A stretch of DNA of 54,893 bases, taken from positions 1 through 54,893 of the forward strand of contig QWQU01000003.1 of assembly GCA_003670735.1 (NCBI GenBank). The letters are read 5' to 3'. The notes under the pieces were generated by a model. The model saw only the letters and a list, made by a program, of their open reading frames with translations, was not told the origin of the DNA and did no database searches. The translations under genes were made by a program, and so were the position numbers. The stretch is from Chloroflexota bacterium. Its GTDB lineage: Bacteria > Chloroflexota > Dehalococcoidia > UBA2979. Every line of letters starts with the position of its first letter. The first letter of the stretch is position 1. Below are positions 12,951 to 21,312 of the stretch, piece by piece.

Positions 12951-13913
12951 ATGCAAGACCGCGACGGCGTACGCGCGACTGAGGCGGCCACGATGGCCGC
13001 CTCGGACGATGTGGCGGATTCCGCCTCGCCGCAGCATGTGCGCCTCGGTGCATGGCTGCGGTCGGAGCGATTGCGCCGCGGGTTCTCGTACGCCGAGGTT
13101 GAGCGCGACACGCACATCAACCGGCTGTACCTCGAAGCGCTCGAGGATGAGCACTACGACGTGCTGCCGGCACCGGTGTACACGCGCGGATTCGTGAAGC
13201 TGTACGCGCGCATGCTGGGCATCGACCCGAGCGGCGCGTCGGCGATGCTGCCGGATGATTTGCCGACACCACCTGGACTCGAACCATCCGCAGCGCTGCG
13301 CCGACAGCGCGAGAAGGCAGCGATCACACTGCCCAAGCTGCCCTCGATGCGCGTACCGGCACTGCGTGTGCCGGAGCTGCGCACGCCACGGACTGGGATT
13401 CGGCTGCCGTCACTCGGTGGCGGCGGGGCGTCCTCGAGCGGTGGTGGGGCAGCGCTCGGGCTGAAGGTGCCGGCGATCTCGCTCGGACCGGACGCCAGGC
13501 GCTACCTGCTGGCTGCGGTCGGCGTGGCGATCCTGCTGGCGGCGGGATACTTCCTGCCTCGGTACTTCGAGTCGCAGGGCTCGACCGGAACACAGGCCGT
13601 GGCGACGTCGGCAGCCTCGACGGTGCAGCCGGGCACGAACACAACGCAGGCGACGCCGGGTGCGGCGAGTACGAGCAGTCCGAACGTGACGCCGCCGGTG
13701 CCAACCGGGCCGGCGCTCGCGAACTACGTGGGGATGTCGCAGGCGGACGCACAGAAGGCGCTCGAGACGCTCGGTCTGACGTTCGTCGTGAACCAGGCAG
13801 CGAGCGTGACGGTGCCGCAGGGCCAGGTGATCGCGCAGTTCCCGTCGGCAGGCTCGCGCCTAAACGCCGGCGACAACGTGGTCTTGTCGGTCTCCCGCGG
13901 CGCCCCTCGGTAG
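12951..13913 (+). CDS. rodZ: RodZ-like HTH membrane protein with C-terminal PASTA domain
   Basis: LG..LRSER...T.I...YLEALE....LPAPVYTRGFVKLYA..LGID; one transmembrane helix; C-terminal NYVGMSQADAQKALE.LGL....VPQGQVIAQFP.AG..L..G.NVVLSVSRG (PASTA). Directly upstream of rimO. Confidence 0.8.
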   Translation: MQDRDGVRATEAATMAASDDVADSASPQHVRLGAWLRSERLRRGFSYAEVERDTHINRLYLEALEDEHYDVLPAPVYTRGFVKLYARMLGIDPSGASAMLPDDLPTPPGLEPSAALRRQREKAAITLPKLPSMRVPALRVPELRTPRTGIRLPSLGGGGASSSGGGAALGLKVPAISLGPDARRYLLAAVGVAILLAAGYFLPRYFESQGSTGTQAVATSAASTVQPGTNTTQATPGAASTSSPNVTPPVPTGPALANYVGMSQADAQKALETLGLTFVVNQAASVTVPQGQVIAQFPSAGSRLNAGDNVVLSVSRGAPR

Positions 13914-14033: not shown

Positions 14034-15404
14034 GTGAAGTACCATCTTGTCACGCTTGGCTGCGCGAAGAACACCGTCGATTCGATGCGGCTCGAACGCG
14101 CGCTGCGCAATGGACGGCACACCTCGGTGGGGACGCCCGATGAGGCGGACCTGCTGCTGGTGAACACGTGCGGGTTCATCGACGCGGCAAAGGACGAGTC
14201 GGTGAGCGTCGTGCGCGCGCTGGACGAGGGGCGCAAGCCCGGTCAGCAGATCTATGTCGTGGGCTGCATGACGCAGATCGCGAAGGACGAAGTGCTGGAG
14301 GCCGTACCCACGGTCGACGCCACGTTCGGCGCGGAGGCATGGGACGACATCGCCGCCAGCCTTGGCCCGGCGGATGCAGCGTTCGACATTCCGGAGCCCT
14401 CCATGCCATCCACGAGCATCCCGATGCTCGACCTGGGTATGCCGAGTGCGTACCTGAAGATCTCGGACGGCTGTGACCGACCGTGCACGTTCTGCATCAT
14501 CCCGACGATCAAAGGACGGATGCACTCCGACACCACGGAGCGACTGCTCAACGAGGCGCGCTGGCTCGCGAACAGCGGCGTGCGCGAGCTCGTGCTGGTC
14601 GCGCAGGACTCGACCGCCTACGGCGAGGACGCGGGTGAGCGGGACGGGCTCGCGACCTTCCTCGAACGACTGTCGGAGCACGTGCCGGATGTGCCGTGGA
14701 TCCGACTGATGTACGCATACCCCGGCCGCGTGACGCCTCGACTGGCGGAGACGATGGCGCGGCTGCCGAACGTGGTGCCGTACCTCGACATGCCGTTGCA
14801 GCACGGGAGCGACGCGGTGCTGCGGCGCATGAAGCGGCCGAGCCTGCGCGTGGCGCGGCAGAGCATCGAGGCGGTGCGGTCGGCGATGCCGGACGTGACG
14901 CTGCGGACGACGTTCATCGTTGGCTACCCCGGCGAGACGGAATCGGAGTTCCAGGAGCTGCTGTCGTTCGTCGAGGAGCAGCAGTTCGACCACGTCGGCG
15001 CGTTCACCTACTCGCCGCAGCCGGGCACGCCGGCGGCCGCTGAAGGCGGCGCGCTGAGCGAGCGCGTGAAGCAGCAGCGCTACGGTCGAATCATGGAGCT
15101 GTCCCAAGGGATCGCGCTCAAGAAGAACCGAACGATGGTCGGCCGCGAGTTCGATGTGCTGATCGAGTCAGAGCACCCGACCGAGAGCCAGGGTGGCGGA
15201 CTCGTGGTGGTGGGTCGCACGGTGCGCGACGCGCCCGAGGTGGATGGCCTGGCGCTGGTGCGCGGGGAGTTCGCAGCGGGCTCGATGGTGCGGGTGCGGG
15301 TCGATGGCGCGCTGCCATACGACCTGCTCTGCACGCCCGTCGGCACCCAGGGGGTGTCTTCGCCCAGCTTCAACGCGGCCTCGTTGCCGTTTACGGGTCG
15401 CTAG
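14034..15404 (+). CDS. rimO: Ribosomal protein S12 methylthiotransferase RimO
   Basis: LGCAKNTVDS, VNTCGFIDAAKDES, YLKISDGCDRPCTFCIIP, WIRLMYAYP, DAPEVDG. Confidence 0.96.
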   Translation: MKYHLVTLGCAKNTVDSMRLERALRNGRHTSVGTPDEADLLLVNTCGFIDAAKDESVSVVRALDEGRKPGQQIYVVGCMTQIAKDEVLEAVPTVDATFGAEAWDDIAASLGPADAAFDIPEPSMPSTSIPMLDLGMPSAYLKISDGCDRPCTFCIIPTIKGRMHSDTTERLLNEARWLANSGVRELVLVAQDSTAYGEDAGERDGLATFLERLSEHVPDVPWIRLMYAYPGRVTPRLAETMARLPNVVPYLDMPLQHGSDAVLRRMKRPSLRVARQSIEAVRSAMPDVTLRTTFIVGYPGETESEFQELLSFVEEQQFDHVGAFTYSPQPGTPAAAEGGALSERVKQQRYGRIMELSQGIALKKNRTMVGREFDVLIESEHPTESQGGGLVVVGRTVRDAPEVDGLALVRGEFAAGSMVRVRVDGALPYDLLCTPVGTQGVSSPSFNAASLPFTGR

Positions 15405-15578
15405 TCTCCTAGCGGCTGGGCTCTCGAGTCACCTCGTTTCGTACGGTTCGTCCTCGATAACTTTCGTGCATCGCCTCGATCTGCTCGTGGGATAACGGGT
15501 CAGTTTGTTGTGTGGTCAGGGTAATCCCGCGTTTCCCCGCATTTAACGTCGATTTCACGTGAAAGTGGTCACAAGTAC

Positions 15579-15607
15579 TTGCGAGGGTTTAGGCGAGCGC
15601 GCATGAT
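15579..15607 (+). promoter_or_regulatory. Putative sigma70 promoter of microprotein A
   Basis: TTGCGA-N17-CATGAT. Confidence 0.45.
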
Positions 15608-15663
15608 GTTTCTGCAGGCAAGGGAGGGCGAGGCCCACCGAGCCACGAAGGGACTAAGACACC

Positions 15664-15792
15664 ATGAATAACGAGTACATCCAGCGGTATTACAGCGCAG
15701 TCGTAGGCTCGAAGCGCATCAACAGCCCGAGCTTCACCGAGGCTGCGAAGGACTTGGCCAGCGCCAACGAGTGCATCCTCCTGGTCTACTAG
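15664..15792 (+). CDS. Microprotein A (42 aa), paralog of 16135-16254
   Basis: MNNEYIQRYYSAVVGSKRINSPSFTEAAKDLASANECILLVY*. GAAGGGA RBS; 21/34 identity to microprotein B with synonymous changes. Confidence 0.85.
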   Translation: MNNEYIQRYYSAVVGSKRINSPSFTEAAKDLASANECILLVY

Positions 15793-15845
15793 CTCTCGAT
15801 CTTCCGCGGCGGAGGCCCCCTCTCTCTCTTCTGCCGCTTCGATGC

Positions 15846-15877
15846 CAAGAGGCGCCCACCCCCCGGGGCGCCTCTTG
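15846..15877 (+). terminator. Hairpin after microprotein A
   Basis: CAAGAGGCGCCC...GGGCGCCTCTTG. Confidence 0.6.
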
Positions 15878-16035
15878 TGCGCCCAACGTAGTTGGGGTTT
15901 TGGCCCAGATTCTCTGATTCGGACTTGGCAAGACTCGAACGCTCGCTTCCTAGCGGAGCACGCCGGTTCTTGCTCCCTCTCGATGGCTCGTTTGTACGAG
16001 CGGATGCTCGGAATTAGTGCCATAACACTCTTTAC

Positions 16036-16056
16036 ATATACCCCGTATAGGTATAT
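16036..16056. promoter_or_regulatory. CsoR/RcnR-family operator-like palindrome overlapping the promoter of microprotein B
   Basis: ATATACC-CCGTATA-GGTATAT (TACC-N7-GGTA with a C-tract) lying within TTTACA-N17-TATATT. Confidence 0.6.
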
Positions 16057-16134
16057 ATTTCTCTTGCGGCAGTAGACCTGCCAACAGTTCGGGCACGAGG
16101 GCGAGGCCCAGTGCACCGGGAAGGACCCAGTCAG

Positions 16135-16254
16135 ATGTTGAAGATTGAGCGGTACTACAGCGGAATCGTCGGAGCTCGTCGGATTAACGCCCCGACGTTT
16201 GCCGAGGCGGCGAAGGACATGGAGCGGGCCAACTCTCGCATCCTGGTCGCGTAA
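16135..16254 (+). CDS. Microprotein B (39 aa), paralog of 15664-15792
   Basis: MLKIERYYSGIVGARRINAPTFAEAAKDMERANSRILVA*; GGGAAGGA RBS. Confidence 0.85.
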   Translation: MLKIERYYSGIVGARRINAPTFAEAAKDMERANSRILVA

Positions 16255-16328
16255 GCGATTCACCTCGCACCTCGGACGCCTGAGTCTCTCGGAGGCAAGG
16301 CGACCGACGGTTGTAGGCCAACAACCAT

Positions 16329-16355
16329 GAAGGGGCGCCCAATGGGCGCCCCTTC
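16329..16355. terminator. Hairpin between convergent units
   Basis: GAAGGGGCGCCCA-A-TGGGCGCCCCTTC. Confidence 0.65.
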
Positions 16356-16388
16356 GTCATGTCCGGTGAGCCGCAAGCCGCGCTCGAG

Positions 16389-16565
16389 CTAGCGGGTGGC
16401 ACGCCAGAGGCTGCGGCCGATGAGGCCAGTCGCGACGAGGACGATCGCAGCACCGATGAGCTGCAGGCCGGGAGAGTCGTCGAGGCCGCCAGCGACGATC
16501 GCGAAGGCACCCAAAGCGGCGAGGATCAGCCAGGTGCCGACGAGCGTGACGACGTGGAGCGTCAC
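16389..16565 (-). CDS. Small two-TM membrane protein (DDSPG motif)
   Basis: GTG overlaps the HTH gene stop (GTGA); VTLHVVTLVGTWLILAALGAFAIVAGGLDDSPGLQLIGAAIVLVATGLIGRSLWRATR. Confidence 0.7.
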   Translation of the reverse strand: MTLHVVTLVGTWLILAALGAFAIVAGGLDDSPGLQLIGAAIVLVATGLIGRSLWRATR

Positions 16566-16804
16566 AGGGCTTCCTCGATCTCCGGGTCGTCGTCGGCATA
16601 GCCCTCGATCCACTCGAGGAGGTCGCCGGGCTGGCACTCCAGCACTCGGCACATGGCCTCGAGGGTGCTGAAGCGGATGGCCTTGGCTCGGCCGTTTTTG
16701 AGGACGGCGACGTTGGCAGGGGTGAGGCCGACGCGCTCCGCGAAGTCACCGACGCTCATCTTGCGCTTCGCGAGCTCGACATCGATGCGGACAACGATGG
16801 GCAT
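16562..16804 (-). CDS. XRE/Cro (YozG-like) transcriptional regulator
   Basis: IDVELAKRKMSV..FAERVGLTPANVAVLKNGRAKAIRFSTLEAMC..LECQPGDLL. Confidence 0.93.
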   Translation of the reverse strand: MPIVVRIDVELAKRKMSVGDFAERVGLTPANVAVLKNGRAKAIRFSTLEAMCRVLECQPGDLLEWIEGYADDDPEIEEAL

Positions 16805-17284
16805 CTAGATCACTCCTTCGAGGTCGGAGCGGAGGAGGGTGGCCTGCCGGAGCAGGGCGCGCATCACCACCATCAGCAGGCCGACGACGGTCACTGAGAG
16901 CGTCAGGAAGATCAGGACCATCGGCATGCCGGGGTCATCGGCCTGCGAGAGCACCCAGGCGGTGAAGCTCGCGAGCACCAGCCAGCCGCCGGCGATCGAC
17001 CAGATGATGGCGTTGACCCACTTGAACGCCTCGGTGCTGAAGATGCGGTCGGACTGGACAAGGCTGAGCAGACGCCAGATCGAGACGACGATGACCTCGG
17101 CGCAGAGGATGCAGAAGCCAGCGAGGAAGGTCAGCGGCCAGCGGAGGTAGGCCTGGTCCGGGTGCTGCTGGGAGTTGTAGGCGAACGTTCCGGGGAACGA
17201 CAGGAACTGGAAGACGAGCAGCACCAGAAACAGCGCTGCCATCACGGCTTTGAGAAGGATGACCGATCGACGTTCGATATTCAT
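16805..17284 (-). CDS. DUF2975 membrane protein
   Basis: Four transmembrane segments, RLL..V..DRIFS, ALLRQAT.LRSDLEGVI; the usual partner of the YozG HTH. TTGACA-N17-GATATT 6 nt before the ATG. Confidence 0.9.
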   Translation of the reverse strand: MNIERRSVILLKAVMAALFLVLLVFQFLSFPGTFAYNSQQHPDQAYLRWPLTFLAGFCILCAEVIVVSIWRLLSLVQSDRIFSTEAFKWVNAIIWSIAGGWLVLASFTAWVLSQADDPGMPMVLIFLTLSVTVVGLLMVVMRALLRQATLLRSDLEGVI

Positions 17285-17349
17285 GAATCGAATATCGATA
17301 GTTAGGAGATGATTGTCAATAGCGTTCTGAGCGCTGGTAGATTTGTCGC

Positions 17350-17793
17350 ATGGCAATCATGCGAATGGATCACGTGAGCATCATCGTCGAGGATCTCCCG
17401 GGGGCGATCGAGTTCTTCTCGACGCTGGGGATGGACCTGCTCGGGGAAGCGGCGGTGGAGGGCGACTGGGTCGACCGCATCAACGGCCTCGATGGCATGC
17501 AGGTGGAGATCGCGATGATGCGCACGCCCGACGGTCACGGGCAGATCGAGCTGACGAAGATTCGCCGCCCAGCACTAGTCGAGGTGACGCCGGCGGTGCA
17601 GCCGCCGAACACGCTCGGGCTACGGCAGGTGATGTTCGAGGTGGACGACCTCGACGGCACGATCGCGCGGCTGCACGAGGCGCACGGCACCGAGCTGATC
17701 GGTGAGGTCGTGCAGTACCTGAACTACTACCGGCTCGCCTACGTGCGTGGGCCGGTGGGGATCATCGTGGCGCTCTCGGAAGCTGTGTCCTGA
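17350..17793 (+). CDS. VOC/glyoxalase family protein
   Basis: MDHVSIIVEDL..AIEFF..LG, FEVDDLD, YVRGPVGIIVAL. Confidence 0.92.
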   Translation: MAIMRMDHVSIIVEDLPGAIEFFSTLGMDLLGEAAVEGDWVDRINGLDGMQVEIAMMRTPDGHGQIELTKIRRPALVEVTPAVQPPNTLGLRQVMFEVDDLDGTIARLHEAHGTELIGEVVQYLNYYRLAYVRGPVGIIVALSEAVS

Positions 17794-20665: not shown

Positions 20666-21235
20666 GTGCGGCTGTTCGTCGCGGTCGAGATCCCCGATGC
20701 GTGGCGCTCCATTGCGAGCGCGACCAACGAGCTGATCGGCGCGTCGGTCGGGCCACTGAACGCGAACATGCGCTTTGTCGATCCATCGCTGATGCACATC
20801 ACGCTGCGCTTCCTGGGCGAGGTGCCCGAAGAGCGCATCGCCGACCTCGATGCGGCGTTGCGACATCGGATGTCGCCAGTGGACGTCGGGCTCGCGCTGG
20901 GGACGCCGAGCACGTTCGGGCCGCCAACTCGAACGCAGGTGGTGTGGCTCGGTGTGCGCGGCAACGTCGAAGGGCTGCGCGTGCTGGTGCGGCGCGTAGA
21001 CCTCGCGCTGGCGGATGCGGGCGTGAAGGCGAACGACGCACGGTTCAATCCGCACATCACGCTGGCACGCCTCGACCGCCACGTGAGCGGGGATGACCGG
21101 CGGCAGATCGCGGAGCTGGTGGGCTTTCTGCCGGCGCCTCACCCATACACGCTGCGCGTGACATCAGTCGCACTCGTGCGTTCGACGCTGGGTGGGCCGC
21201 GTCCGGTGTACGACGTGTTGAAGCGCTACTCGTGA
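20666..21235 (+). CDS. thpR: RNA 2',3'-cyclic phosphodiesterase
   Basis: MRLFVAV; two HxT motifs (HITLRFLG, FNPHITLAR). Confidence 0.93.
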   Translation: MRLFVAVEIPDAWRSIASATNELIGASVGPLNANMRFVDPSLMHITLRFLGEVPEERIADLDAALRHRMSPVDVGLALGTPSTFGPPTRTQVVWLGVRGNVEGLRVLVRRVDLALADAGVKANDARFNPHITLARLDRHVSGDDRRQIAELVGFLPAPHPYTLRVTSVALVRSTLGGPRPVYDVLKRYS

Positions 21236-21312
21236 GATTCGTGAGCACATTCACACTGCGCTGACGTGCACGCGAGCGGGCCTTGCAGTTGGCGATGCGT
21301 GGCGAAATCTCG

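Follow-up and report, generated by a model that had tools for sequence, protein, structure and literature searches.

Tandem genes for a family of ~40-residue microproteins in Dehalococcoidia, with a different candidate operator at each paralogue

Two microprotein genes downstream of rimO

A 54,893-nucleotide (nt) stretch of a Chloroflexota genome (contig QWQU01000003.1 of assembly GCA_003670735.1; here called the window) carries two short open reading frames (ORFs) on its plus strand, downstream of rimO, the gene for the uS12 methylthiotransferase (14034-15404, plus strand). Microprotein gene A (15664-15792, plus strand) encodes 42 amino acids (aa) and microprotein gene B (16135-16254, plus strand) encodes 39 aa, with the translations originally predicted. 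The original prediction, made from the sequence of the window, had described them as a lineage-specific pair of paralogues, each a self-contained transcription unit. BLASTP aligned the two peptides with 21 of 35 residues identical (60%, E 7e-17), bearing out the paralogy that had been proposed from 21 of 34 core residues, and comparison of the 39 aligned codons gave 8 synonymous-only and 16 residue-changing differences, with nonsynonymous (dN) and synonymous (dS) divergences of 0.34 and 0.74. A and B were the only two family matches in the genome of the window (G000), an assembly of 1.36 Mb in 84 contigs with a completeness of 77%.

The predicted GAAGG elements are present 5' of both ORFs: on the plus strand, gene A has the ribosome-binding site GAAGGGA (15647-15653) and gene B has GGAAGGA (16119-16125). 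Most relatives have a GGAAGG-type site 6-12 nt 5' of the start codon. An alternative upstream GTG start exists for B at 16111; the ATG at 16135 is preferred because of the relatives and the position of the ribosome-binding site. The exact B sequence is present in the ESM Atlas, and DNA nearly identical to the window was found in lake and freshwater metagenome runs. Comparison of four DNA runs with 15400-16400 showed that they differ at two positions outside the ORFs, 15463 and 16061.

Selection on the encoded proteins

It is very probable that A and B are genuine coding genes, each transcribed as an independent unit, and that they represent a hitherto undescribed protein family with members of about 40 residues. 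Between G000 and its closest relative (G002), gene A differs by 11 synonymous-only and 2 replacement codons (dN/dS 0.03), and gene B differs by 3 synonymous codons and no replacement, the B protein being identical. Two further orthologue pairs gave 11 synonymous versus 4 replacement codons (G033b/G014b, dN/dS 0.10) and 8 versus 3 (G006/G026, dN/dS 0.14). Aligned columns of G000 and G002 are conserved at 97.5% in ORF B, 89.9% in ORF A and 81-89% in the flanks, and the sole change of ORF length is one whole codon. All relatives keep the frame, with the ATG lying 3-7 codons 5' of the YY motif and the stop codon about 10 residues past the core. The combination of amino-acid conservation with synonymous drift, and of an ORF length that is fixed across more than 130 sequence clusters, shows that the protein is under selection. 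Homologues with conserved frames were found both in public collections and in related Dehalococcoidia genomes, and close orthologues differ mostly at synonymous positions, in agreement with the selection at the protein level that had been claimed for the pair and consistent with protein-coding paralogues under purifying selection.

A small, basic family predicted to fold as a helical hairpin

Alignment of 27 sequences yielded the consensus M-x-I-x-R-Y-Y-S-x-x-V-x-x-G-R-x-N-x-P-T-x-x-E-A-x-x-D-L-x-R-A, followed by a variable tail of 8-12 mostly hydrophobic C-terminal residues; a Y, P, E and D are invariant or nearly so. A profile search of 1.84 billion proteins of all lengths recovered 133 cluster representatives at E<=0.001, nearly all of 38-60 aa, and a second collection contributed 49 family proteins of 39-67 aa, none with a Pfam domain and with 'hypothetical protein' as the only name given. 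No fused forms of the family were found in the profile search; two candidate fusions (P0106, 2981 aa; P0140, 169 aa) were rejected as repeat proteins. A set of 150 members has a median length of 43 aa and a median net charge of +2.5, and 90% of these proteins are positively charged. They are hydrophilic, with a median grand average of hydropathicity (GRAVY) of -0.56; their longest hydrophobic runs reach 9 residues at most (median 4), and only 6 of them contain Cys.

An AlphaFold2 model of B, built with 150 relatives, has a helix at residues 3-13, an 8-residue loop and a second helix at residues 22-38, with a mean predicted local distance difference test (pLDDT) score of 71. The family is thus predicted to be a soluble helical-hairpin miniprotein, in which a GRRNxPT loop joins two short helices. 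The near-invariant P-T/S-x-x-E looks like a helix N-cap.

Searches of curated databases gave no assignment. At E<=10 the only Pfam match for A and B was HSM3_C (E 0.18, below the cut-off), and none of the 27 members matched Pfam at E<=0.05. NCBIfam gave no match for A and B, and neither PADLOC nor PHROGs matched any of the 27 members. The best profile match among PDB sequences (E 0.064) was a 14-residue stretch of a Cas3, Foldseek found no PDB fold at E<=0.001, and the ESM Atlas contained no usable look-alike. A literature search on RimO-linked small proteins and on small proteins or small ORFs of Dehalococcoidia returned no such family, with the supplements of small-ORF catalogues (e.g. PMC11364881) lying outside the search. 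The suggestion that this is a lineage-specific family without a name is upheld by these searches.

Members of genus g327 (L136 and L137), which belongs to another class of the phylum and has isolate-quality genomes of 99% completeness, have a basic N-terminal extension of about 20 residues, so that the L137 protein has 61 aa. Additional N-terminal residues likewise precede the core in several metagenomic members of 55-59 aa.

Distribution and the rimO anchor

A search with peptide A gave matches in 24 of the 61 related genomes, 22 of them among the 36 of the same taxonomic family. A sample of the class gave matches in 20 of 401 genomes (14 of the 25 in family f1, and 1 of 10 in genus g6 of that family), with one to five copies per genome, and a sample of the phylum gave matches in 5 of 400 other genomes, all of one genus. 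From these samples, the family appears to be almost only found in one family of Dehalococcoidia.

The enzyme encoded upstream of A has the Pfam domains UPF0004, Radical_SAM and TRAM_2, and scores as a RimO equivalog, with 422.6 bits against the TIGR01125 cut-off of 356.95. A same-strand family copy lies directly 3' of rimO in about 26 genomes. Loci were examined in 23 other genomes, 17 of which have the arrangement; it also occurs in 6 further genomes, families f11 and f27 included, and in 2 named Dehalococcoidia metagenome-assembled genomes. RimO proteins of the closest relative loci are 71-72% identical. None of 78 other rimO loci, from other Chloroflexota and other phyla, has a family member within 4 kb. 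Paralogues that are not linked to rimO occur elsewhere, one orthologous group lying near a class-V aminotransferase gene in three genera. A is the ancestral, rimO-linked copy, and B is a duplicate specific to the genus of G000.

A 20-bp dyad at the promoter of A

A putative promoter of A was read from the sequence at 15579-15607 (plus strand), comprising a -35 hexamer TTGCGA (15579-15584), a 17-nt spacer and a -10 hexamer CATGAT (15602-15607). It lies below the threshold of the consensus scan, and hexamers of like type and spacing occur in the orthologous upstream regions. Abutting the -35 hexamer is a 20-bp dyad, GTGAAAGTG-GT-CACAAGTAC (15559-15578, plus strand), which is a candidate operator. 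Upstream regions of 200 nt were searched for GTGAWWGTG-N2-CACWWTCAC with up to 3 substitutions, revealing the dyad at 22 of 27 rimO-linked copies, at none of 5 B-type copies and at 1 of 14 other paralogues; the background was 6 matches in 1.285 Mb of unrelated rimO loci. Still other palindromes are found in the upstream regions of other paralogues.

A CRP/FNR-type site (GTGA-N6-TCAC) was also considered for the promoter of A and is present in 13 of 29 upstream regions; the dyad is reported in its place because it fits more copies. The genome has four other GTGA-N6-TCACA sites, and these together with a second dyad at 21241-21254 gave no clear regulon. This second dyad-like motif (GTGAATGTGCTCAC, minus strand) lies just past the stop codon of a LigT/2'-5' RNA ligase-family gene (20666-21235).

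A candidate CsoR-type operator at the promoter of B

The promoter of B, TTTACA-17-TATATT (16031-16059, plus strand), matches the consensus at 10 of 12 positions and was the sole promoter-like site called in 15350-16450, against a mean of 0.2 in shuffled sequence. Of the separate promoters claimed for the pair, that of B was therefore recovered by the scan, and that of A is conserved in position among orthologues although below the scan threshold. Between the -35 and -10 hexamers of B lies a strand-neutral palindrome, ATATACCCCGTATAGGTATAT (16036-16056), which resembles a CsoR type-2 operator. The type-2 consensus of Streptomyces lividans, as set out in the operator description of PMC3902906, is ATATACCCCTNAGGGGTATAT, a 21-nt pseudopalindrome in which a TAC-X9-GTA inverted repeat flanks C/G tracts. 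The B site agrees with that description (PMC3902906) at 17 of 20 specified positions; in its 21-mer, TAC occupies positions 4-6 and GTA occupies positions 16-18.

The G000 genome has just one further ATACC-N7-GGTAT site, between a csoR-like gene and trxA. This divergent csoR-like/trxA-trxB unit (contig C42, L142:201-2065) has the operator ATACCCCTATGGGGTAT between TTGACA and TATATAAG. The csoR-like protein has 111 aa, matches PF02583 with E 4e-22 and possesses Cys34, His59 and Cys63, a spacing that we take to be the Cu(I)-sensing pattern of CsoR. The genome thus encodes a CsoR/RcnR-family repressor with a site of the same kind at its own divergent promoter, as would be expected of an autoregulated repressor.

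Exact ATACC-N7-GGTAT sites number 2, 2, 2, 3 and 3 in five genomes of the genus, and the reversed control pattern gave none. All 12 sites fall into three promoter classes of 4 sites each, belonging to the csoR-like/trxA unit, to B-type microprotein genes and to a gene for a 72-74-aa CxxC...CxxC protein without a Pfam match. The site is kept at the B-type promoters of G002, G003 and G004, and the B copy of G001 has the relaxed form TACC-N7-GGTA. The CxxC protein gene is preceded by two tandem CsoR-type operators (L147:1570-1785 in G003; L149 in G004; L152 in G001; L146 in G002) and is convergent with a peroxiredoxin (AhpC/TSA) gene in G003; the operator search did not find it in the incomplete G000 assembly. 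Within the putative regulon, it seems to be the gene under the tightest control. B likely belongs to this CsoR-type regulon, and the repressor apparently controls the thioredoxin system rather than copper efflux. With a CsoR-type operator at B and a 20-bp dyad at A, the two genes appear to be wired differently; separate transcription units with different operator-like sites fit the earlier proposal that the copies respond to different signals.

CsoR-like sites were also seen at two rimO-linked copies in other genomes. In G023, the interval from rimO to its linked microprotein gene contains a promoter with the hexamers TTGCGT / TACAAT, which encloses a full CsoR-type operator (GTATACCCCGTGAGGGTATAC, L129:5417-5437) and would drive a short transcript. 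In the genus of G026 (L018:520-727), two genes are inserted between rimO and the microprotein gene, encoding a small Cys-rich C-x-...-C-x-x-x-C protein, presumably YHS/TRASH-like, and a hotdog-like ORF. Past these two genes lies a degenerate CsoR-like site (CATACCCCTGTAGGGTAAC).

Leader hairpin and 3' regions

Both genes have the 14-mer GAGGGCGAGGCCCA about 25-40 nt 5' of the start codon, and no other exact copy was found in the 1.36-Mb genome. In A it lies at 15624-15637 (plus strand) and forms the hairpin GGGC-GAG-GCCC. In B it forms the top hairpin (16097-16110) of a longer stem-loop (16088-16120, plus strand), the base of whose stem reaches the first G residues of the ribosome-binding site. 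Across 25 aligned leaders, 86% of cells pair, compared with 75% in shuffled alignments (0 of 500 reach the observed value) and at most 57% in slid controls. Compensatory changes were seen in 3 of the 4 base pairs, and the hairpin is also present in a distant paralogue. The leader hairpin travels with the gene, and we regard it as likely functional.

In two lake runs, a contig of other context (8,050 and 1,703 nt) matches only 34 nt of the B leader (16079-16112, with 4 differences), so the leader element is present in at least one other organism or locus of the same samples.

The 3' regions of both genes fold better than shuffled sequence (z -3.65 for A and -6.42 for B). That of A (15806-15880, plus strand) consists of a hairpin with the C/U-rich loop CCCCCUCUCUCU (15806-15837) followed by a GC hairpin, GGCGCCC-ACCCCCC-GGGGCGCC (15844-15880, plus strand), which is a probable terminator. 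Downstream of B is a 12-bp GC hairpin (16329-16355), common to B and the convergent minus-strand genes, which is probably a two-way terminator. The terminator scan called the B hairpin on the minus strand only, and no U-run follows either hairpin on the plus strand. Of the terminators attributed to the pair, the strong hairpins are present and the clear U-tract on the plus strand is lacking, for which reason the label 'terminator' is our interpretation. The GGCGCCC...GGGCGCC hairpin was rejected as a mark of the family, as it is a general terminator type with 8 sites in the genome.

C-rich single-stranded 3' motifs recur at rimO-linked copies of several genera, namely CCCCCUC, the loop CCCCCUCUCUCU and the terminator loops ACCCCCC/UCCCCCC (15806-15837 and 15858-15864 in the window). 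They are missing from B-type copies and many other paralogues. These motifs resemble the C-rich seed loops of some regulatory RNAs. A search of 14900-17000 against Rfam 15 gave no family match, the only three sub-threshold matches being to unrelated small RNA models, all at the B hairpin.

Proposed mechanism and comparison with known systems

On balance, we favour the explanation that A and B are separately wired genes of a stress-switched, cytoplasmic, partner-binding microprotein. Each gene is a compact module. Its promoter holds a candidate operator, its leader of 50-70 nt contains a small GC hairpin and ends in a strong ribosome-binding site, and a GC hairpin comes after the ORF. A would be the rimO-anchored module, with a promoter dyad for a regulator. 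B is expected to be under CsoR-family repression because its promoter bears a CsoR-type operator, and would be released together with thioredoxin and thioredoxin reductase when the sensor meets Cu(I) or thiol-reactive stress. Repression of B by the CsoR-family protein, and its co-induction with the thioredoxin system, are proposed with fair confidence from the shared operators. The signal is uncertain, as the Cys-His-Cys residues suggest copper, yet no copper exporter bears the site. The microprotein would then bind a larger cellular partner, with the cell setting its dose or isoform according to stress. Of the functions named in the original prediction, that of a regulatory peptide may apply. 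A partner-binding regulator as the mode of action is a tentative proposal, weakly inferred, and a partner in the translation apparatus or the RimO/uS12 area, at which the rimO anchor hints, seems unlikely.

A bolder version, which we consider very doubtful, is that the family members are interchangeable 'plug-in' translation regulators, the ancestral copy beside rimO acting on the RimO/uS12 step or the decoding centre. The invariant K/R-D-L turn may then imitate the uS12 loop modified by RimO, duplicates rewired to other sensors (here a CsoR-type copper/thiol sensor) would bring the same effector to the ribosome, and the leader hairpin could allow the protein to feed back on its own mRNA, as in ribosomal-protein operons.

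The regulatory logic resembles that of CsoR regulons and of stress-induced microproteins, and the family matches none of the described families that were tested. As in the type-2 regulon of S. lividans, a pseudopalindrome lies between the -35 and -10 hexamers of the B promoter, and a PF02583 repressor has a site of the same kind at its own promoter. Unlike in that regulon, the candidate sites point to thioredoxin, thioredoxin reductase, a CxxC miniprotein and a 39-aa microprotein as targets, and not to CopZ/CopA efflux. The E. coli proteins MgtS, MntS and SgrT are stress-induced microproteins that regulate larger proteins. The present family is like them in its length of about 40 aa, its monocistronic genes with dedicated stress-responsive promoters and its lack of an enzymatic domain. 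It has no sequence relationship to them and is soluble and basic, whereas examples of that type are mostly membrane-associated or act on transporters.

Alternative explanations

The original prediction had raised the possibility of RiPP-like (ribosomally synthesized and post-translationally modified peptide) precursors. The N-terminal 30 residues would then be a leader and the C-terminal 8-12 residues a core, modified by the radical-SAM (S-adenosylmethionine) methylthiotransferase or another enzyme. As in precursors processed by radical-SAM enzymes, a short peptide with a conserved N-terminus and a variable hydrophobic/aromatic tail adjoins a radical-SAM gene, which lies directly upstream in about 26 genomes, and the near-invariant Asp stands in a K/R-D-L context loosely like that of the uS12 loop modified by RimO. 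The neighbouring enzyme, however, scores above the NCBI cut-off as the housekeeping RimO equivalog, and the rimO loci of 78 other genomes have no such peptide. Unlinked paralogues adjoin unrelated genes (class-V aminotransferase, cytochrome P450, alcohol dehydrogenase) with no recurring maturase, protease or exporter, and Cys is almost absent from the family. Each copy has its own stress-type promoter outside any biosynthetic operon, and the peptide is predicted to fold as a helical hairpin whose second helix extends into the supposed core. These features make a RiPP precursor very unlikely. An accessory role for the microprotein, binding RimO, uS12 or the small subunit and modulating methylthiolation or decoding, would account for a rimO linkage that persists in three taxonomic families despite changing flanks, and for the basic character of the protein; E. 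coli RimO is reported to depend on accessory proteins (PMC10002905). We regard this role as improbable, given the separate promoters and the many paralogues unlinked to rimO. Genus g6, moreover, mostly does without the peptide (1 of 10 genomes; the presence of rimO there was not looked up), and gene order among relatives is non-independent evidence.

Other explanations place the function outside the protein or at the membrane. The main functional product might be the RNA, a regulatory or dual-function transcript acting on other mRNAs through its leader hairpin and C-rich 3' loops (e.g. at G-rich ribosome-binding sites), with the ORF secondary. The transcripts would be only ~260-290 nt long, the leader hairpin is conserved with compensatory changes, and the C-rich single-stranded motifs recur at rimO-linked copies of several genera, so that the genes recall SgrS/SgrT, SR1/SR1P and RNAIII/hld, dual-function small RNAs that encode peptides, in having a short transcript, conserved structured untranslated regions and a small ORF. 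In contrast to these RNAs, conservation here is strongest at the protein level, with synonymous drift, a fixed ORF length and more than 130 clusters; the C-rich motifs are not shared by B-type and many other paralogues, and 14900-17000 has no Rfam match. A chiefly RNA-borne function therefore has a low probability, and an RNA role could exist only in addition to that of the protein. The type I toxin-like or membrane-active small protein offered as another possibility in the original prediction would suit the small size, own promoters, structured untranslated regions and tandem copies. It is unsupported because the family is hydrophilic and basic, without a hydrophobic run of membrane length (the longest is 9 residues); PADLOC matched none of the 27 members, no minus-strand promoter-like site for an antisense RNA was called in 15350-16450, and the long antisense ORF is not conserved. 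We consider such a toxin highly improbable. That antisense ORF, of 224 aa (15589-16263, minus strand), covers the entire region, and A and B might accordingly have arisen by chance in GC-rich intergenic sequence, or belong to the opposite-strand frame. The minus-strand frame runs across promoters and hairpins, and neither G002, the closest relative, nor G001 keeps it intact. In our view the 133-cluster profile matches, the synonymous pattern and the broken antisense frame refute a chance origin, to which we assign next to no probability.

Several observations weigh against the proposal of stress-switched, partner-binding microproteins or limit parts of it. The expectation of a low dN/dS held for close pairs (0.03-0.14) and did not hold throughout, distant pairs ranging from 0.2 to 1.1 and the close pair G016/G035 reaching 1.26 (7 replacement codons and a single synonymous one, lying mostly in the tail); such values are noisy at about 40 codons each, and the tails are variable. 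The leader hairpin has only 3-4 bp, and its fold energy is no better than that of shuffles (z -0.7 and -1.3, with B at -1.3). Confidence in the AlphaFold2 model is moderate (pLDDT 71; predicted template modelling score 0.35). The operator assignment is based on similarity to the Streptomyces consensus and on co-occurrence in five related, non-independent genomes, and a pattern of 10 specified bases is expected by chance about once per genome by our estimate. No copper exporter with a CsoR-type site was found among the 12 sites of the five genomes. The 20 listed runs that cover 15000-16800 were all DNA, mostly lake or freshwater metagenomes, with no RNA among them. Finally, the proximity to rimO may reflect nothing more than inherited gene order.

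Significance and neighbouring genes

The main new result is the cis-regulatory anatomy of the pair, with a paralogue-specific candidate operator at each of A and B. Small proteins systematically escape notice, and Chloroflexota have, to our knowledge, so far contributed almost none. The present family is well delimited and widely sampled: it comprises 133 clusters, its length and genomic anchor are fixed, and its cis-regulatory wiring can be read from the sequence. Its hosts are uncultured freshwater Dehalococcoidia. If the proposed regulon is correct, a CsoR-family sensor is tied to the thioredoxin system and two miniproteins rather than to copper efflux, which would extend the targets of this repressor family. 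The paralogue-specific operators would likewise show cleanly how a gene duplicate can come under the control of a new regulator.

Upstream of rimO, a gene at 12951-13913 encodes a protein with an HTH_25 domain and a C-terminal PASTA domain, and its position is kept in several relatives. The minus-strand genes convergent with B (16389-17356) encode an HTH_26 (Cro/C1-type) regulator (16562-16804), a DUF2975 membrane protein (16805-17356) and a small membrane-like ORF (16389-16652). This HTH_26/DUF2975 cluster shares the hairpin of B and is conserved only in G002 and G003.

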